Notes: a model not told the origin generated them from the letters alone. DNA of 64,000 nucleotides from Lachnospiraceae bacterium 48-33 (GCA_041223485.1 JBCLQI010000005.1), one strand, 5' to 3'. Shown: positions 33,929 to 42,073, counted from the stretch's first letter. Program-made: numbers and translations.

Positions 33929-34363
33929 TTATAAAAGGTCATTTACATTTCCTGTCAAAGACTTAACTAAATCCCATCCAGTACTGCCACCAAATGACCG
34001 ATATCCATAAGCATCATATTTGCCATAAACTCTCGACAATGCACTTCCACTGTCTCTCCAGCTTTTAAAGGAACCTATTGACTTTTGCTTTATTGTCTTA
34101 TCCTTATTTGATGTATTTACATAACCTGAAGCTGCTGTTGCTCCATTTATCGAATAAGCTAGCTTCATATCTACGCCCAGATATGTTTCCTGAGAATAAC
34201 TTAATGTAACAGTCATTGAATGATAAATTTCATCACCCAAAACTTGAGGTCTGCCATAACCTACATTTAATTTAAACTCATATGCAGCAAACGCACTTAT
34301 ACTCTGTCCAATTGCCATAATACCAACCAGTCCTAATGTAGCAAGCTTTTTTCCTAATTTCAT
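33929..34363 (-). CDS. Small secreted beta-rich protein (144 aa), divergent third paralog of the bacteriocin-like family
   Basis: Signal peptide ending SAFAA. Mature part is S/T/Y/G-rich. It sits behind the same conserved upstream element as the 38612 and 41657 genes. Confidence 0.5.
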   Translation of the reverse strand: MKLGKKLATLGLVGIMAIGQSISAFAAYEFKLNVGYGRPQVLGDEIYHSMTVTLSYSQETYLGVDMKLAYSINGATAASGYVNTSNKDKTIKQKSIGSFKSWRDSGSALSRVYGKYDAYGYRSFGGSTGWDLVKSLTGNVNDLL

Positions 34364-34429
34364 TATTTCGCCTTCTTTCTTTAATCAAATACATTCGAAA
34401 TCTATTATCCTTTTCTACTATCTCTCACT

Positions 34430-34560
34430 GTTTGTAACCAGTCAAATCTAATCAACAAAAATAATAGCTTCTTCAACAGTTACCATTTTGATGATTTACT
34501 TTTGTTTAAACCAGTTGAATAATTTTTCCAACCAGTCAGTTGACAAAAACATCATAATTT
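34430..34560 (-). promoter_or_regulatory. Conserved upstream element with LytTR-like repeats (ACAGTTACC, ACCAGTTGA, ACCAGTCAGTTGACAAAAA) and a TTGACT -35 box
   Basis: The same ordered motif set recurs at 39150-39270 and 42198-42316, each upstream of a small secreted-protein gene. Confidence 0.4.
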
Positions 34561-34944
34561 CTCTTTTCGTGTACACTTTATTATCACTTTGTTTAAACAC
34601 TTTTATTTTATTGCTTCTTACAAAAATTGTCAACTAGCCAAACATAATCGTCCGTTTTTTTGCATAATCGTCTCAAATATATACTTTTATATTAATTCCA
34701 TTTATCCTATTTGTATAATTATTGTTGTCAAAAATTTTCCATTCTTTTCTTCTATTCTACTACCAGTTCTATTTGCCTTTTTTCGCTATTTCTATTCCAT
34801 AATCTGATTATATAACTGTTACTCTCTTTTTATTTATGTATAATTTACCATTCATTTACTTAAATCTCATAATTTTATACAATAAAAAATTAAAGTTATA
34901 ATATAAAATAATCAGCAACTATATAACTCTGATTTTAATATTCT

Positions 34945-35607
34945 TTAATTTTCATTTTTCCCATTTAACATGATAATCTCATCTGCATACTCTTTTACCC
35001 CTTCGTTATGTGATACTGCAATCACTGTATGTCCTTGTTCTGCCAATGTTTTAAGATTTGAAAACACAATTTTCTCATTTTCTTCATCCAGATTTCCTGT
35101 CGGTTCATCAGCAAGAATAATATCCGGATTATTTGCAAGTGCACGGGCAATACATACTCTCTGTTGTTCTCCTCCACTCATTTGTGATGGCAGGGAATCT
35201 GCAAGCTTTTTTACTCCAAATCTTTCAAGAAGATTTTCTGCACGTTTTTTTCGTTCTTTTTTTGAAATTTCAGGGTTAATTCTCATAGGCACAATCACAT
35301 TTTCCAGAGCATTTAAATATGGGTTCAGATAAAATCCCTGAAAGACAAAACCAAGATTTTTCATTCTAAGCTTTGCTTTTTCCTTTTCCGTCAGTCCATT
35401 TATATTGTTCCCATTAATATAAATTTCCCCTTCTGTGGCATTGTCTATTGTACCGATAATATTTAACAAAGTAGATTTTCCCGCACCAGAACGACCCATA
35501 ATGGCATAAAATTTTCCTTTCTCAAACTCATATGAAATGTTGTTTAATACTTTTACATCGTTTTTATATATTTTTACTACTTTTTTTACATCTACAATTA
35601 TTTCCAT
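34945..35607 (-). CDS. ABC transporter ATP-binding protein (MacB/FtsE-like, lactococcin-972-group-like)
   Basis: Walker [10 protein letters not shown], signature MSGGEQQRV, Walker B IILADEPT. Only 220 aa. Confidence 0.9.
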
Positions 35608-35689
35608 TTTTTATATTCCTTTCTTATATTTTTATCAATACTAACAAAAAATCCAAATATACAAGCATGCAACTTGTTGATATGTTCAG

Positions 35690-39270: not shown

Positions 39271-39289
39271 TTTCTTTCCATATACACAT

Positions 39290-39393
39290 CAGCATATCAT
39301 AAGCACTGCCATAAGACATGAAATAAACAGGATATTTCCAATTGTTGTTTTCTAGTCTGAAATCATTTTTTTATAATATATCTCATCATATAG
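39290..39393 (-). pseudogene. Remnant of the 5' end of the 195-aa FtsX-like gene left at the duplication junction
   Basis: About 100 bp nearly identical to 36178-36281, which is the start of the 35690..36277 gene. It is followed directly by the small-protein upstream region instead of the rest of the gene. Confidence 0.5.
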
Positions 39394-40644
39394 CTATCCC
39401 TCTGATTTTATTTCATTCAGTAATTCTATCTTTTTTAACTGTTGTAAAATCATATAAACAGCAGTACACATAACAACAGCTAATATTATCACTCCATAAT
39501 AGAAAGTATTTACAGAGAACTGCATATGAATAATTCCATATTCCATAGGAAGCAGGTTTTGAATTCCCAGATTTTCAAGCATTAATGTAATCATTACAAC
39601 AATAAAAGAAACAAACAAAACCGGAATCAATCGAATGGCATATTCCATTTCAAAAATACAGACAAGATTTTTTCTGGTATATCCCTGTACTATATATATG
39701 GCTATTTCCTTTTTTCTTCCTCCTATATCGTTTCCTATCATAATAATCATCATAATGATAACTGTTATAAGCAAAATTATAGTAAGAATCATACCTATAA
39801 ATTGAATAAAAGAAAATATAGTCGGCAATCCACCTTCAGTATTACATTCCGTAAATCCACTTACATCTATTTTCTCTGCTATTTCATATCTTACTTTATC
39901 AAGATTTTCACGGCTGTCCAGAATAACAGCATAATAATATTCCATTTCATAACCTATATAATGGCTTCTGTCATAATCACCACTTACCTCCATATCTTTT
40001 CTAAGCTGCTCTTCACTTCCTTCTTTACGTTTTTCTGACAAAAATACTGCATCTTCAGTATTTAAGAATGCGATAGTTGTTCCCGTTACTGCATAAATAT
40101 TGTCATATGTTCCTGACACTGTACATTCAAATTCTATTTCATTATCCAAACGATTTGTTATATATAATTTTAATGTCTCTCCTATGTATTTAGAACCATC
40201 TACATAATTTCCATTTTCTGCTGCATACATATAATGTGGCAGCAAAATTTCATTTTTTTCTGGAAGCGTTCCTTTCACTAAATAATCTTTATAATTATCT
40301 GAGCAGGATTTTACGGATAAACTTACTCTTTCTTCTTTCTTTATCCCTTCAACATCTGTTGCAATCTCATATACATAAGGATAAATATCTAAAATATGTT
40401 CCATGCTGGTGCTTAATTCTTTTAATTGTGCATATAAATTACCATCCCTATCCTGATAAATAATATTTCTTGCCGTTGGTGTCTCATCCATCAACTGAAC
40501 AGCTTTATCAATAGAAAATGCCATAGAATTTATTAAAAAATAAATAAACAGGGCCAAAAACAAAATAAAAAATAAAAGCTTTCCTATCTTTTGTCGTCCT
40601 CTTATATTATGAAAGGCAATGCAAAACACTTCCCTGATATTCAT
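39394..40644 (-). CDS. FtsX-like ABC permease (copy B), ~90% identical to copy A
   Basis: Colinear with 36282..37532. The differences cluster in the extracytoplasmic domain. Confidence 0.7.
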   Translation of the reverse strand: MNIREVFCIAFHNIRGRQKIGKLLFFILFLALFIYFLINSMAFSIDKAVQLMDETPTARNIIYQDRDGNLYAQLKELSTSMEHILDIYPYVYEIATDVEGIKKEERVSLSVKSCSDNYKDYLVKGTLPEKNEILLPHYMYAAENGNYVDGSKYIGETLKLYITNRLDNEIEFECTVSGTYDNIYAVTGTTIAFLNTEDAVFLSEKRKEGSEEQLRKDMEVSGDYDRSHYIGYEMEYYYAVILDSRENLDKVRYEIAEKIDVSGFTECNTEGGLPTIFSFIQFIGMILTIILLITVIIMMIIMIGNDIGGRKKEIAIYIVQGYTRKNLVCIFEMEYAIRLIPVLFVSFIVVMITLMLENLGIQNLLPMEYGIIHMQFSVNTFYYGVIILAVVMCTAVYMILQQLKKIELLNEIKSEG

Positions 40645-41489
40645 TCCATTTTCTCCAAAAAAGTACTGATTCCGTCTGCATAAAAATCCATTTCTTCTCC
40701 TTTTTCATTATAAATAACAGCTTCCAATACTTCGGCATATCGGTTCGTGGCGTTACTATCTGCAATAATTCCATTAAAATATACAACCTCAAGATATCCT
40801 TTTTTTTCAGCTATTTGAAATCTAGCAGCGCCGTTAGAAGTAAGTTCCTTTCTGGTTATTTCCTTTGATTTTGTATCAGTGAATAAATATTGTTGAAATT
40901 GATTCCAGTCATATATCTTTTCTTTTGACATTTTTTCAATATCAGAAATGGTAATTTCTGATATATTATCTTCCAAAGTCTGTTTTGCCAAATCGTATAA
41001 TTTGTCACCCTGTTCCTTGAGAATGCTTGTAAAACTTATTAAATACTCTATTCCATCATCGTCCAGTACTCCATTCTCTTCCATAGTAACATCAACAAAG
41101 TAATTATTTTTCCCCTCACTTGCCAAATAGGAGAATTGCTTGTTATCTTTTCCCAAGAATATAAATGAAAAGCCTTTTTTACTGTCTTCAGAACCTGAAA
41201 ATGAATAACTTGGTTTCAATTTAACTTTTTTTAGTTCCTCTAAAATCTTATTTATTACTTCTGTTTTGTATATTATAACAGACTGGGCAACCATATTCTG
41301 ATTTGTATCTTCATCAATATAAATTTGAATCGCCTGAATTTCCATTGCATCATCTTTCATATAAAATGTATATTTTTTTCTTCCAAAAAAGAAATATACA
41401 GTATATACGATAAAAACTGTTACAAACATCATAATTGTAACAAGTATAATTTTTTTCTTTTTTTTCATGTTGCCACCTTCTACTAACAA
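40641..41489 (-). CDS. Membrane-anchored extracytoplasmic protein (copy B, 282 aa)
   Basis: Paralog of 37529..38350 with the same MKKKKKIIL N-terminus. ATGA overlap with permease B. Confidence 0.5.
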   Translation of the reverse strand: MLVEGGNMKKKKKIILVTIMMFVTVFIVYTVYFFFGRKKYTFYMKDDAMEIQAIQIYIDEDTNQNMVAQSVIIYKTEVINKILEELKKVKLKPSYSFSGSEDSKKGFSFIFLGKDNKQFSYLASEGKNNYFVDVTMEENGVLDDDGIEYLISFTSILKEQGDKLYDLAKQTLEDNISEITISDIEKMSKEKIYDWNQFQQYLFTDTKSKEITRKELTSNGAARFQIAEKKGYLEVVYFNGIIADSNATNRYAEVLEAVIYNEKGEEMDFYADGISTFLEKME

Positions 41490-41656
41490 TTAAGAAGAAG
41501 GAAATTTCTCTGAATGAGAAATTTCCACCTCTCATACTATCATGTATTTTGTTAGATAGTTCAATCAAATTAATAAACAACTCTTAATTTTTTAATATAG
41601 TAATCTAGTATAGAGATAATTCTATACATACCATTTTTAAAGCTTATAGTTTTATT

Positions 41657-42073
41657 TTACCATGTATCACTAAATGATGAGATTCTGTAACTAGCAGTTG
41701 AATCACTACCAAAACTATAATGTCTATCTCCTTTAGATACATCATCAAAAGTCCATGAATATTGTATACCAGTAGTGGCTGTTGTAATTGAAATATTATG
41801 ATTAGCCACAGCAAATGAATGGCCTAAAAAAGATTTTGTGTAAATGCCGATACTAGCTGTACCTTTTGTGTATGTTTTATTAAAGCCTACTTTCATTGTA
41901 TGGGAAGCATCTTTCGCAAATGAAACATTCTCGCTAGCCCATGCCTTAAATCCAGCCTCAACTGTAAACGGCTCTTTCCAAGAATATGAATTTGTACCAG
42001 CTAATACACTTGCACTCATTGCAACAATAGCTGTCATACTGGCAATACTTATTTTTAATTTATTTTTTATCAT
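41657..42073 (-). CDS. Small secreted beta-rich protein ending in Trp (copy B, 138 aa)
   Basis: Paralog of 38612..39025 with the same signal peptide and the same C-terminal SYRISSFSDTW. The mature region has diverged. Confidence 0.55.
   Translation of the reverse strand: MIKNKLKISIASMTAIVAMSASVLAGTNSYSWKEPFTVEAGFKAWASENVSFAKDASHTMKVGFNKTYTKGTASIGIYTKSFLGHSFAVANHNISITTATTGIQYSWTFDDVSKGDRHYSFGSDSTASYRISSFSDTW

Follow-up and report, generated by a model that had tools for sequence, protein, structure and literature searches.

The stretch of 64,000 nucleotides (nt) from Lachnospiraceae bacterium 48-33 that we analysed (GCA_041223485.1 JBCLQI010000005.1, henceforth referred to as the window) contains, on its minus strand, a locus of low guanine-plus-cytosine content (0.28-0.31 between 32 and 44 kb vs 0.36-0.41 in the flanks) in which two similar genes for small, predicted secreted proteins, A and B, head the two copies of a gene cassette (Table 1). 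The cassette runs from the small-protein gene through genes for a 274-amino-acid (aa) bitopic membrane protein, a long FtsX permease and a short FtsX-like permease to the gene for a MacB-type ATPase of ATP-binding cassette (ABC) transporters. Gene order and repeat analysis together indicate that A and B head a tandemly duplicated unit of 3.05-3.1 kb, which takes in the next two genes as well; the short permease and the ATPase genes occur in the downstream copy only, and a disrupted remnant of the short permease gene, situated between the upstream FtsX gene and gene A, marks the boundary of the duplication. The initial annotation had described three paralogous small secreted proteins at this locus. 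All three open reading frames (ORFs) are present on the minus strand and A and B are indeed paralogues (79% identity over their full length, BLASTP expectation (E) value 1e-75), but the third protein, C, is not demonstrably one: its comparison with A gave an E value of 5.9, which is not significant.

Table 1. Features of the locus; positions are those of the window unless another contig is named.
Feature	Position	Strand	Description
Gene A	38612-39025	minus	137-aa precursor; predicted mature protein ~112 aa, 12.4 kDa, isoelectric point (pI) 8.8; heads the downstream, complete cassette
Gene B	41657-42073	minus	138-aa precursor; predicted mature protein ~113 aa, pI 8.2; heads the upstream cassette copy
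Gene C	33929-34363	minus	144 aa; predicted mature protein ~118 aa, pI 9.05; heads module 2
Bitopic protein, copy A	37529-38350	minus	273 aa
Bitopic protein, copy B	40641-41489	minus	275-282 aa; one N-terminal transmembrane (TM) helix, ~240 aa outside the cell
Long FtsX-type permease, copy A	36282-37532	minus	416 aa; TM1 at residues 20-38, outside loop 39-284, further TM helices 285-400
Long FtsX-type permease, copy B	39394-40644	minus	416 aa; 245-aa extracytoplasmic loop
Short FtsX-like permease	35690-36277	minus	195 aa, no large loop; single copy common to both cassette copies
MacB/LolD/FtsE-type ABC ATPase	34945-35607	minus	220 aa, single copy; Pfam ABC_tran
Remnant of short permease gene (5' part)	39283-39388	minus	disrupted MMRYIIKK... 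(MMRYIIKKMISDWK...); direct repeat, 94% identical to 36170-36259
Response regulator	42984-43700	minus	receiver (PF00072) and LytTR (PF04397) domains, both above cut-off; last residues altered by a deletion
Truncated AgrC/ComD-type (HPK10-type) histidine kinase	42448-43116	minus	222-aa ORF; H-box and GHKL domain left; Pfam HATPase_c_5
Promoter block upstream of B	42203-42310	minus	repeats GACTGGTAGGAA at 42299-42288 and ACCTGGTTTAGAA at 42279-42267, starts 20 nt apart
-35/-10-like pair in the block of B	42240-42213	minus	TTGAGA-16-TATGCT, after the repeats (promoter scan)
Promoter block upstream of A	39144-39260	minus	repeats GACTGGTTAGAA at 39248-39237 and GACTAGTTTAGAA at 39226-39214, starts 22 nt apart
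Promoter block upstream of C	34439-34545	minus	repeats GACTGGTTGGAA at 34537-34526 and AACTGGTTTAAA at 34516-34505, starts 21 nt apart
Terminator-like hairpin after B	41500-41526	minus	terminator scan; folding z = -4.35
Long hairpin after A	38372-38476	minus	followed by UUUUUGUUU; precedes the next gene; folding z = -2.4
Long near-perfect hairpin just downstream of C	33826-33915	minus	folding z = -4.3
Module 2	28930-33770	minus	451-aa lipoprotein (32415-33770), ABC ATPase (31333-32220), 796-aa polytopic permease (28930-31320)
Second complete cassette of locus L019	12599-16757		contig of L019

As the initial annotation had pointed out, A and B have a common N-terminus and an identical SYRISSFSDTW end, and it is the middle that varies, with 65-70% identity at residues 61-120 vs 90% at residues 1-40. 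The cleavable signal peptides that it had proposed are borne out by prediction: in A, B and C a lysine-rich N-terminus is followed by a single hydrophobic segment (approximately residues 7-26 in a hydropathy scan, 8-26 in A and B) and a small-x-small, A-x-A-like cleavage site, VLA↓G in A and B and AFA↓A in C, so that the leaders of A and B are predicted to be of the Sec type rather than double-glycine leaders. None of the three proteins contains a cysteine, and we therefore rejected a lipoprotein identity; that of a sortase substrate or S-layer protein was likewise rejected, as no such motifs were found. The mature proteins are basic (pI 8.2-9.05), and the earlier description of them as having few charged residues was overstated, since 20 of the 112 residues of mature A are charged. 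In agreement with the initial annotation, no enzymatic motif was detected in Pfam and NCBIfam scans, and these scans returned no peptidoglycan-hydrolase or other catalytic domain of the kind that defines class III bacteriocins (bacteriolysins). The ratio of nonsynonymous to synonymous substitution rates (dN/dS, or omega) between the two cassette copies was lowest for the FtsX permeases (0.20) and reached 0.35 in the small proteins and 0.39 in the bitopic proteins. Both duplicated copies are under purifying selection, and the differences between them cluster in the middle of the small protein, in the loop of the FtsX permease that lies outside and, in the bitopic protein, at residues 80-140.

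To the family of A and B belong 7 clusters found in a word-indexed search of 5.8 billion proteins and 17 found in an exhaustive profile search of 1.84 billion representative proteins. All members are of ~135 aa with a predicted signal peptide, six residues are invariant in the family alignment (H58, G71, I77, G101, Y118 and D135), most members end in D-(T/N/S)-W, and the names of their sources point to Lachnospiraceae of the mouse gut. Scanning 18 members against Pfam yielded no family (a DUF7748 match at E 0.042 in 2 of the 18 was dismissed as noise), and scans of A, B, C and the partner proteins against NCBIfam, PADLOC and PHROGs yielded none beyond FtsX, ABC_tran, LytTR and GHKL. Searches of PDB sequences with A and with the family profile returned nothing useful, and no plasmid record matched A. 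The initial annotation had allowed that homology to a known structural cell-wall protein family would count against an effector role; no homology to any named family was found. It had also predicted an all-beta fold, in agreement with the AlphaFold2 model of A, in which residues 1-27 are disordered and the remainder forms a nine-strand, all-beta, jelly roll that is similar to carbohydrate-binding modules (CBM), at moderate confidence (predicted local distance difference test score 67.6, predicted template-modelling score 0.62). The best solved matches to this model in Foldseek were PirA (3x0t), Ena1B (7a02), tail-tip domains of phage lambda and the N-terminal domain of the lectin BC2L-C, at template-modelling (TM) scores of 0.4-0.55, and such matches fix no more than the fold class. 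PirA, Ena1B and the beta-jelly-roll modules CBM4/6/35/36 have the predicted fold class and size in common with A, but at 7-14% sequence identity and TM scores of 0.4-0.55 none of them matches at the level of a family, and they occur in genomic contexts of other kinds; none of the 18 family members has a CBM match in Pfam. Overall, these results suggest that A and B represent an undescribed family of Sec-exported beta-jelly-roll proteins of ~12 kDa.

The two bitopic proteins are 74% identical and belong to no known family in Pfam or NCBIfam, and structural comparison returned weak matches only, to uncharacterised Firmicute proteins and YycH, from which no mechanistic insight was gained. The two long permeases are 88% identical (82% in the loop and 96% in the TM part), match the FtsX domain of Pfam (PF02687, E 7.5e-7, above cut-off) and have the large loop between TM1 and TM2 that is typical of type VII permeases. 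The short permease has a weak match to the same domain (E 0.0034, below cut-off); it is retained in the related loci L001, L010, L014, L018 and L019, and is presumed to be the heterodimer partner of the long one. Although the best NCBIfam matches of the ATPase, LolD, DarD, L_ocin_972_ABC, MacB and FtsE, have E values of 1e-59 to 1e-63, it scores below all equivalog cut-offs (for instance 205 bits on L_ocin_972_ABC, TIGR03608, where the cut-off is 254.85), and we could therefore assign it to this group but not to a specific orthologue. The periplasmic core of MacB (PF12704) gave no match at E <= 0.1, and a Pfam scan detected no HlyD-type adaptor.

Upstream of A, B and C, ~150 nt can be aligned and constitute a conserved promoter block, in all three copies of which the sequence GACTGGTT(T)AGAA occurs as two imperfect direct repeats with starts 20-22 nt apart. 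The chance expectation for the 30-nt composite pattern is 0.00. Paired direct repeats ~21 nt apart upstream of operons are the geometry expected for LytTR regulators of HPK10/LytTR systems, and these repeats are putative sites for such a regulator. Near-consensus sigma-70-like promoters are also found on the minus strand at 42365-42393 (TTGACA-17-TATATT, at B) and 34605-34633 (TTGACA-17-TAAAAT, at C). Behind each of the three genes lies a stable hairpin, which would favour a short, abundant transcript with read-through into the genes that follow.

Upstream of B are the genes for a LytTR response regulator (NCBIfam matches: AgrA, BtsR and LytR), which would be the regulator acting at these repeats, and an HPK10-type kinase that is truncated. 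Compared with L001, L005 and L007, the window lacks a 760-bp stretch (5541-6301 in L001; junction at ~43017-43026). Lost with it were the last part (3') of the regulator gene and, from the start of the kinase gene, the ~230 codons that specify the membrane sensor; the two ORFs that remain overlap. The kinases of L001, L005 and L019 are intact, at 422 aa with at least 4 TM helices, whereas that of the window contains no hydrophobic segment and hence no polytopic membrane sensor.

In every related locus with DNA downstream of it, the family gene is followed by a gene of the 274-aa family, even where the identity of the small protein has fallen to 31%; after it come, where the contig allows, the genes for the long FtsX permease, the short one and the ATPase (L001, L010, L014 and L019). 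The relative in L010, at 37% identity, is accompanied by a kinase-LytTR pair. Its promoter has, beside the -35 element, a perfect direct repeat of 15 nt (20 nt apart), and a promoter region of 390 nt occurs there in two copies of 98% identity (5919-8808), one before the cassette and one before a second operon. The products of this second operon are a secreted protein of 336 aa, a short, 125-aa protein resembling S26 signal peptidases and a bitopic protein of 176 aa. In L009, BlaI/BlaR1-like genes take the upstream place of a kinase-regulator pair. In close relatives the locus lies between argH and the same downstream genes but its contents differ, and strains that carry it at the same site have a single cassette or two, regulators in duplicate or the remains of deletions: L001 and L021 have one cassette and two kinase-regulator pairs, L005 has a B-type allele, and L019 and L020 have a second cassette, whose head is a secreted protein of 154 aa unrelated to A and B (hhalign probability 0.9%) and whose partner proteins are 25-33% and ATPase 95% identical to those of the window. 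A fused remnant of the gene for the 154-aa protein (…SVFLGKT..EKFSFSVYSRN…), joined to the C-terminus of an ATPase, is found at 14096-14311 of L001 and indicates repeated deletion and recombination in the locus. L018 contains an intact cassette of the 286-aa protein, FtsX, short FtsX and ATPase genes with neither a small gene nor a two-component system, and in this it would resemble orphan immunity genes.

Rates of evolution differ markedly along the locus. Between the window and L001, at a synonymous divergence (dS) of 0.4-0.6, omega is 0.03-0.04 for the flanking genes glgB, mscS and argH (95-97% identity), 0.07 for the ATPase (92%), 0.13-0.21 for the long FtsX permease (84-87%), 0.20-0.34 for the bitopic protein (74-80%) and 0.29-0.31 for the small proteins (75-81%). 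The rates for the extracellular parts of the system exceed those of the housekeeping genes on either side 5-10-fold.

Gene C does not appear to be a distant member of the A/B family. A profile of 18 A/B-family members aligned with C, or with the family of C (4 clusters only), at a probability of 13%, mostly over the signal peptide, and C as a remote paralogue was rejected on BLASTP and two profile-profile comparisons, even though its YHSM aligns with SHTM of A. C appears instead to be an unrelated small secreted protein within the A/B regulon, with its own lipoprotein and ABC module (module 2). The best local match of the profile aligners was a motif, [ST]-H-[ST]-x-[TK]-V, read at residues 57-62 of A (SHTMKV), 47-52 of C (YHSMTV) and 23-28 of lactococcin 972 (THSATV) and present in B too, which is statistically insignificant and may be a coincidence. 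The spacer between the ATPase gene and C (34371-34857) contains fragments that match L001 at 84-85% identity, in the interior and at the 3' end of its second kinase gene and in the promoter downstream of that gene, from which it follows that the promoter of C arose by the copying of a segment comprising a kinase end plus promoter. Homologues of module 2 in L001 (14913-20021), L018 (7463-8788) and L021 follow a different small secreted protein. In L001 and L021 this head is an unrelated, cysteine-containing protein of 128 aa with the same MKLGKKLA... start, and in L018 a lipoprotein gene of the module 2 type stands directly upstream of the orphan cassette; module 2 lipoproteins measure 404-451 aa across loci. 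At the edge of the variable region a 271-aa Peptidase_C39_2 protein is encoded (27810-28625), in the same position as in L001 and L021. Among the features within 22968-24740/25665-27732 are an OmpR-type two-component system, which adjoins that region, and a CspB-type subtilase with prodomain (a spore germination protease), both seemingly unrelated to the cassettes; the subtilase suggests a spore-forming host among the Clostridia.

One of the closest known systems is that of lactococcin 972, encoded by plasmid pBL1 of Lactococcus lactis, which, as is predicted for A and B, has a Sec-dependent precursor and an unmodified, all-beta product with an aromatic end (...FW in lactococcin 972). On pBL1 the lcn972 structural gene precedes those for a DUF1430 permease and an ABC ATPase, much as the window cassette has its structural gene before an FtsX-related permease and a MacB-type ATPase, and the two ATPases are 35% identical. 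The ABC transporter of lactococcin 972 has been described in a review as immunity-related, and separate short and long transcripts have been reported for it, with which the hairpins in the window would fit (PMC4786598). There are also differences: mature A, with 112 aa and a nine-strand jelly roll in the model, is larger than the 66 aa of lactococcin 972; the split long and short FtsX permeases and the 274-aa bitopic protein stand in place of a single 648-aa DUF1430 protein; and LytTR two-component control sets the cassette of the window apart. The window permeases match PF02687 and not DUF1430; the DUF1430 protein of lactococcin 972 itself matches FtsX weakly (E 0.005). PF09683 (TIGR01653), the family of lactococcin 972, gave no match with A, B or C at E <= 0.1 or with the 18 family members at E <= 1, nor was there an NCBIfam match, under conditions in which the positive controls, lactococcin 972 and a Streptococcus salivarius homologue, matched at ~1e-14. 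Homology to lactococcin 972 (considered for its ...FW end and THSATV, with the sequence checked against 2LGN) was rejected at an hhalign probability of 0.2% for the family profile against that sequence. Mediterrocin, from the Lachnospiraceae species Mediterraneibacter gnavus, is a Sec-exported, unmodified, beta-rich protein of 89 aa when mature, whose activity has been confirmed experimentally and whose cluster also encodes a secreted protein next to it, a permease with a putative role in immunity and an ABC ATPase (PMC12345188). It is similar to A and B, with which we compared it by description only, in source, predicted Sec export and gene layout, but unlike them it is annotated as a member of the lactococcin 972 family, and its core is highly conserved across species (PMC12345188), whereas A and B vary strongly between strains. 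Since A and B gave no match to PF09683, they are proposed to work like lactococcin 972 and mediterrocin, not to be members of that family.

Two further groups of systems resemble parts of the locus. BceAB, YknWXYZ and As-48EFGH are MacB/FtsX (type VII) ABC transporters used for self-protection. Like the window cassette, they combine an FtsX C-terminal domain, a large loop between TM1 and TM2, a LolD/MacB/FtsE-type ATPase and an accessory bitopic protein, and the pairing of a loop-bearing with a loop-less FtsX protein could correspond to the two halves of BceB, or to LolC/LolE. The window system differs from them in having neither the MacB core domain nor an HlyD-type adaptor, and HPK10/LytTR instead of BceRS-type regulators. 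The pln, blp and cbn loci are peptide-bacteriocin regulons of several operons under HPK10 kinases and LytTR regulators. As in the window, their operons are served by one promoter type with paired repeats ~21 nt apart and start with a secreted product followed by its partners, their content varies between strains, and their regulators are often damaged. However, the products of the window would be folded, Sec-dependent proteins of 12-13 kDa and those of pln, blp and cbn are peptides with double-glycine leaders; no C39 ABC exporter processes the products in the window, and no pheromone gene was found in the locus.

Considered together, a quorum-type regulon with several heads, partners that diverge along with the small protein, a generic ATPase, an orphan cassette and a decaying regulator point to a bacteriocin-type locus. 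We tentatively interpret the A/B cassette as encoding a quorum-regulated, Sec-exported protein bacteriocin with ABC-based self-protection, to which we would give slightly less than an even chance of being correct. An effector or bacteriocin had also been the suggestion of the initial annotation, and of the readings considered it is the best supported, by context only: the LytTR-type promoters, the obligate linkage, the fast extracellular evolution, the orphan cassette and the hairpins. Also in its favour are a gene order parallel to that of lactococcin 972 and mediterrocin, the polymorphism of the locus between strains, its low guanine-plus-cytosine content, and mature proteins that are basic and free of cysteine. 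Were it correct, the phosphorylated regulator would activate the three promoters at high cell density, and the hairpin behind the first gene would make the small protein the most abundant product. Exported by Sec, cut at its signal peptide cleavage site and released, the mature protein would bind a target in the cell envelope of competitors and act as an unmodified protein bacteriocin, while the asymmetric ABC machine of the FtsX/MacB type, together with the bitopic protein, would dislodge it from the surface of the producer and so provide self-protection. Several observations weigh against this interpretation. No similarity in sequence to a known bacteriocin, toxin or immunity protein was detected in Pfam, NCBIfam, PDB, PADLOC or PHROGs. 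The argument from the orphan cassette comes from a single metagenomic contig (L018). As omega is below 1 everywhere, relaxed constraint would explain the rates as well as an arms race. No convincing pheromone ORF was seen between or beside the regulator genes in L001 or the window, though one could lie elsewhere in the genome, and with the sensor of its kinase lost this strain may have a silent or deregulated regulon. Finally, the repeats lie ~25 nt further upstream of the best -35 element than in textbook LytTR promoters, and the sigma-70-like promoters of B and C, which are conserved in L001 and absent at A, lie ~75 nt upstream of the repeats.

An alternative is a small protein that is not toxic and serves as an extracellular partner, namely a ligand-binding jelly roll to be loaded, unloaded or activated through mechanotransmission by the FtsX/MacB-type transporter. 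Type VII ABC transporters are known for such partnerships (LolCDE with LolA, FtsEX with PcsB or CwlO), and the strict linkage of the small-protein gene to those of the bitopic protein and the large-loop FtsX permease, the joint divergence of the extracellular parts of all three, the CBM-like fold of the model and the apparent likeness of the long-plus-short FtsX pair to LolC/LolE or a split BceB would be in keeping with one. We nonetheless consider it rather unlikely, given that the transporter cassette is intact without the small gene in L018 and that the homologous cassette of L019 is headed by an unrelated protein; moreover, a very narrow, strain-variable distribution in a low-GC islet is unlike that of a housekeeping machine, and quorum-type LytTR control would be unusual for envelope maintenance. 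In a more specific proposal, which strikes us as improbable, the jelly-roll protein, not a toxin, would be the extracellular cargo acceptor or effector arm of a Gram-positive mechanotransmission ABC machine in which the long and short FtsX permeases are joined by a bitopic adaptor; this Lol- or FtsEX-like, quorum-controlled device would extract or remodel a glycolipid or glycan of the envelope, its swappable heads setting the specificity. The existence of a cassette devoid of the small gene, which counts against a partner, would favour a resistance or sensing module directed at foreign antimicrobial peptides (cf. BceAB, and LanI with LanFEG), in which the small protein would be a decoy or binder. 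ABC transporters of the FtsX type with a single large loop, such as BceAB, do protect against envelope-targeting peptides, and the relative in L009 adjoins BlaI/BlaR1-like sensor genes. Known Bce-type modules, however, have OmpR-type regulators and intramembrane-sensing kinases rather than HPK10/LytTR, a released, non-anchored decoy encoded first in an operon with a terminator-like hairpin behind it would be atypical, and basic proteins such as these would be poor binders of cationic peptides, all of which makes a resistance module distinctly unlikely.

The fold itself brings to mind surface or fibre subunits and secreted lectins or adhesins (cf. Bacillus Ena, TasA and BC2L-C): Ena1B and BC2L-C are among the best Foldseek matches, stand-alone jelly rolls of this kind measure ~110-130 aa, the hairpin probably makes the small protein abundant in comparison with the products of the downstream genes, and the terminal strand ...SFSDTW is strongly conserved. 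Those matches are weak, however (TM scores of 0.4-0.55 at 10-14% identity), there are no cysteines for cross-links of the Ena type, neither a sortase nor SipW nor a wall-anchoring motif was seen at the locus of the window in Pfam or NCBIfam, and the fixed linkage to an ABC transporter would be left unexplained, so that we see only a small chance that A and B are of this kind. The conserved C-terminus, the best-preserved segment even at 47% overall identity, could alternatively mean that the small protein is a pro-signal, from which the ...SFSDTW end is released and sensed by the adjoining kinase in an auto-inducing loop. That a separate pheromone gene was not seen near the kinase and regulator genes would then be accounted for, and some bacteriocins, such as nisin, do induce themselves. 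Yet the model places the C-terminus in the sheet, as its last strand (residues 127-136), and not in a free tail, the pro-peptides of known Sec-dependent pheromones are of 40-60 aa, in contrast to a folded domain of 112 aa, and the cassettes of L009 and L018 are without a kinase-regulator pair; the chance that A and B are pro-signals is accordingly very slight.

If the bacteriocin interpretation is correct, gut Lachnospiraceae would have, in A and B and their relatives, a new family of protein bacteriocins exported by Sec. It would differ from the lactococcin 972/mediterrocin family in sequence and probably also in fold, and would come with an unusual self-protection machine composed of a bitopic protein and a split FtsX/MacB transporter. 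The kind of system would be a recognisable one, that is, a Sec-dependent protein bacteriocin with an ABC transporter of the FtsX superfamily and LytTR control, with the jelly-roll effector, the bitopic partner and the split FtsX pair as its unusual parts. Since only the ATPase and one FtsX domain match named families, current bacteriocin-mining tools miss such a cassette. The tandem alleles A and B, both accompanied by partner genes of their own, are a natural system in which to test specificity. At this locus head and partner proteins are exchanged between strains, and the orphan cassette of L018 and the kinase deletion in the window suggest that producer, cheater and resistant strains coexist in one species; systems of this kind would then shape competition between strains in the gut.

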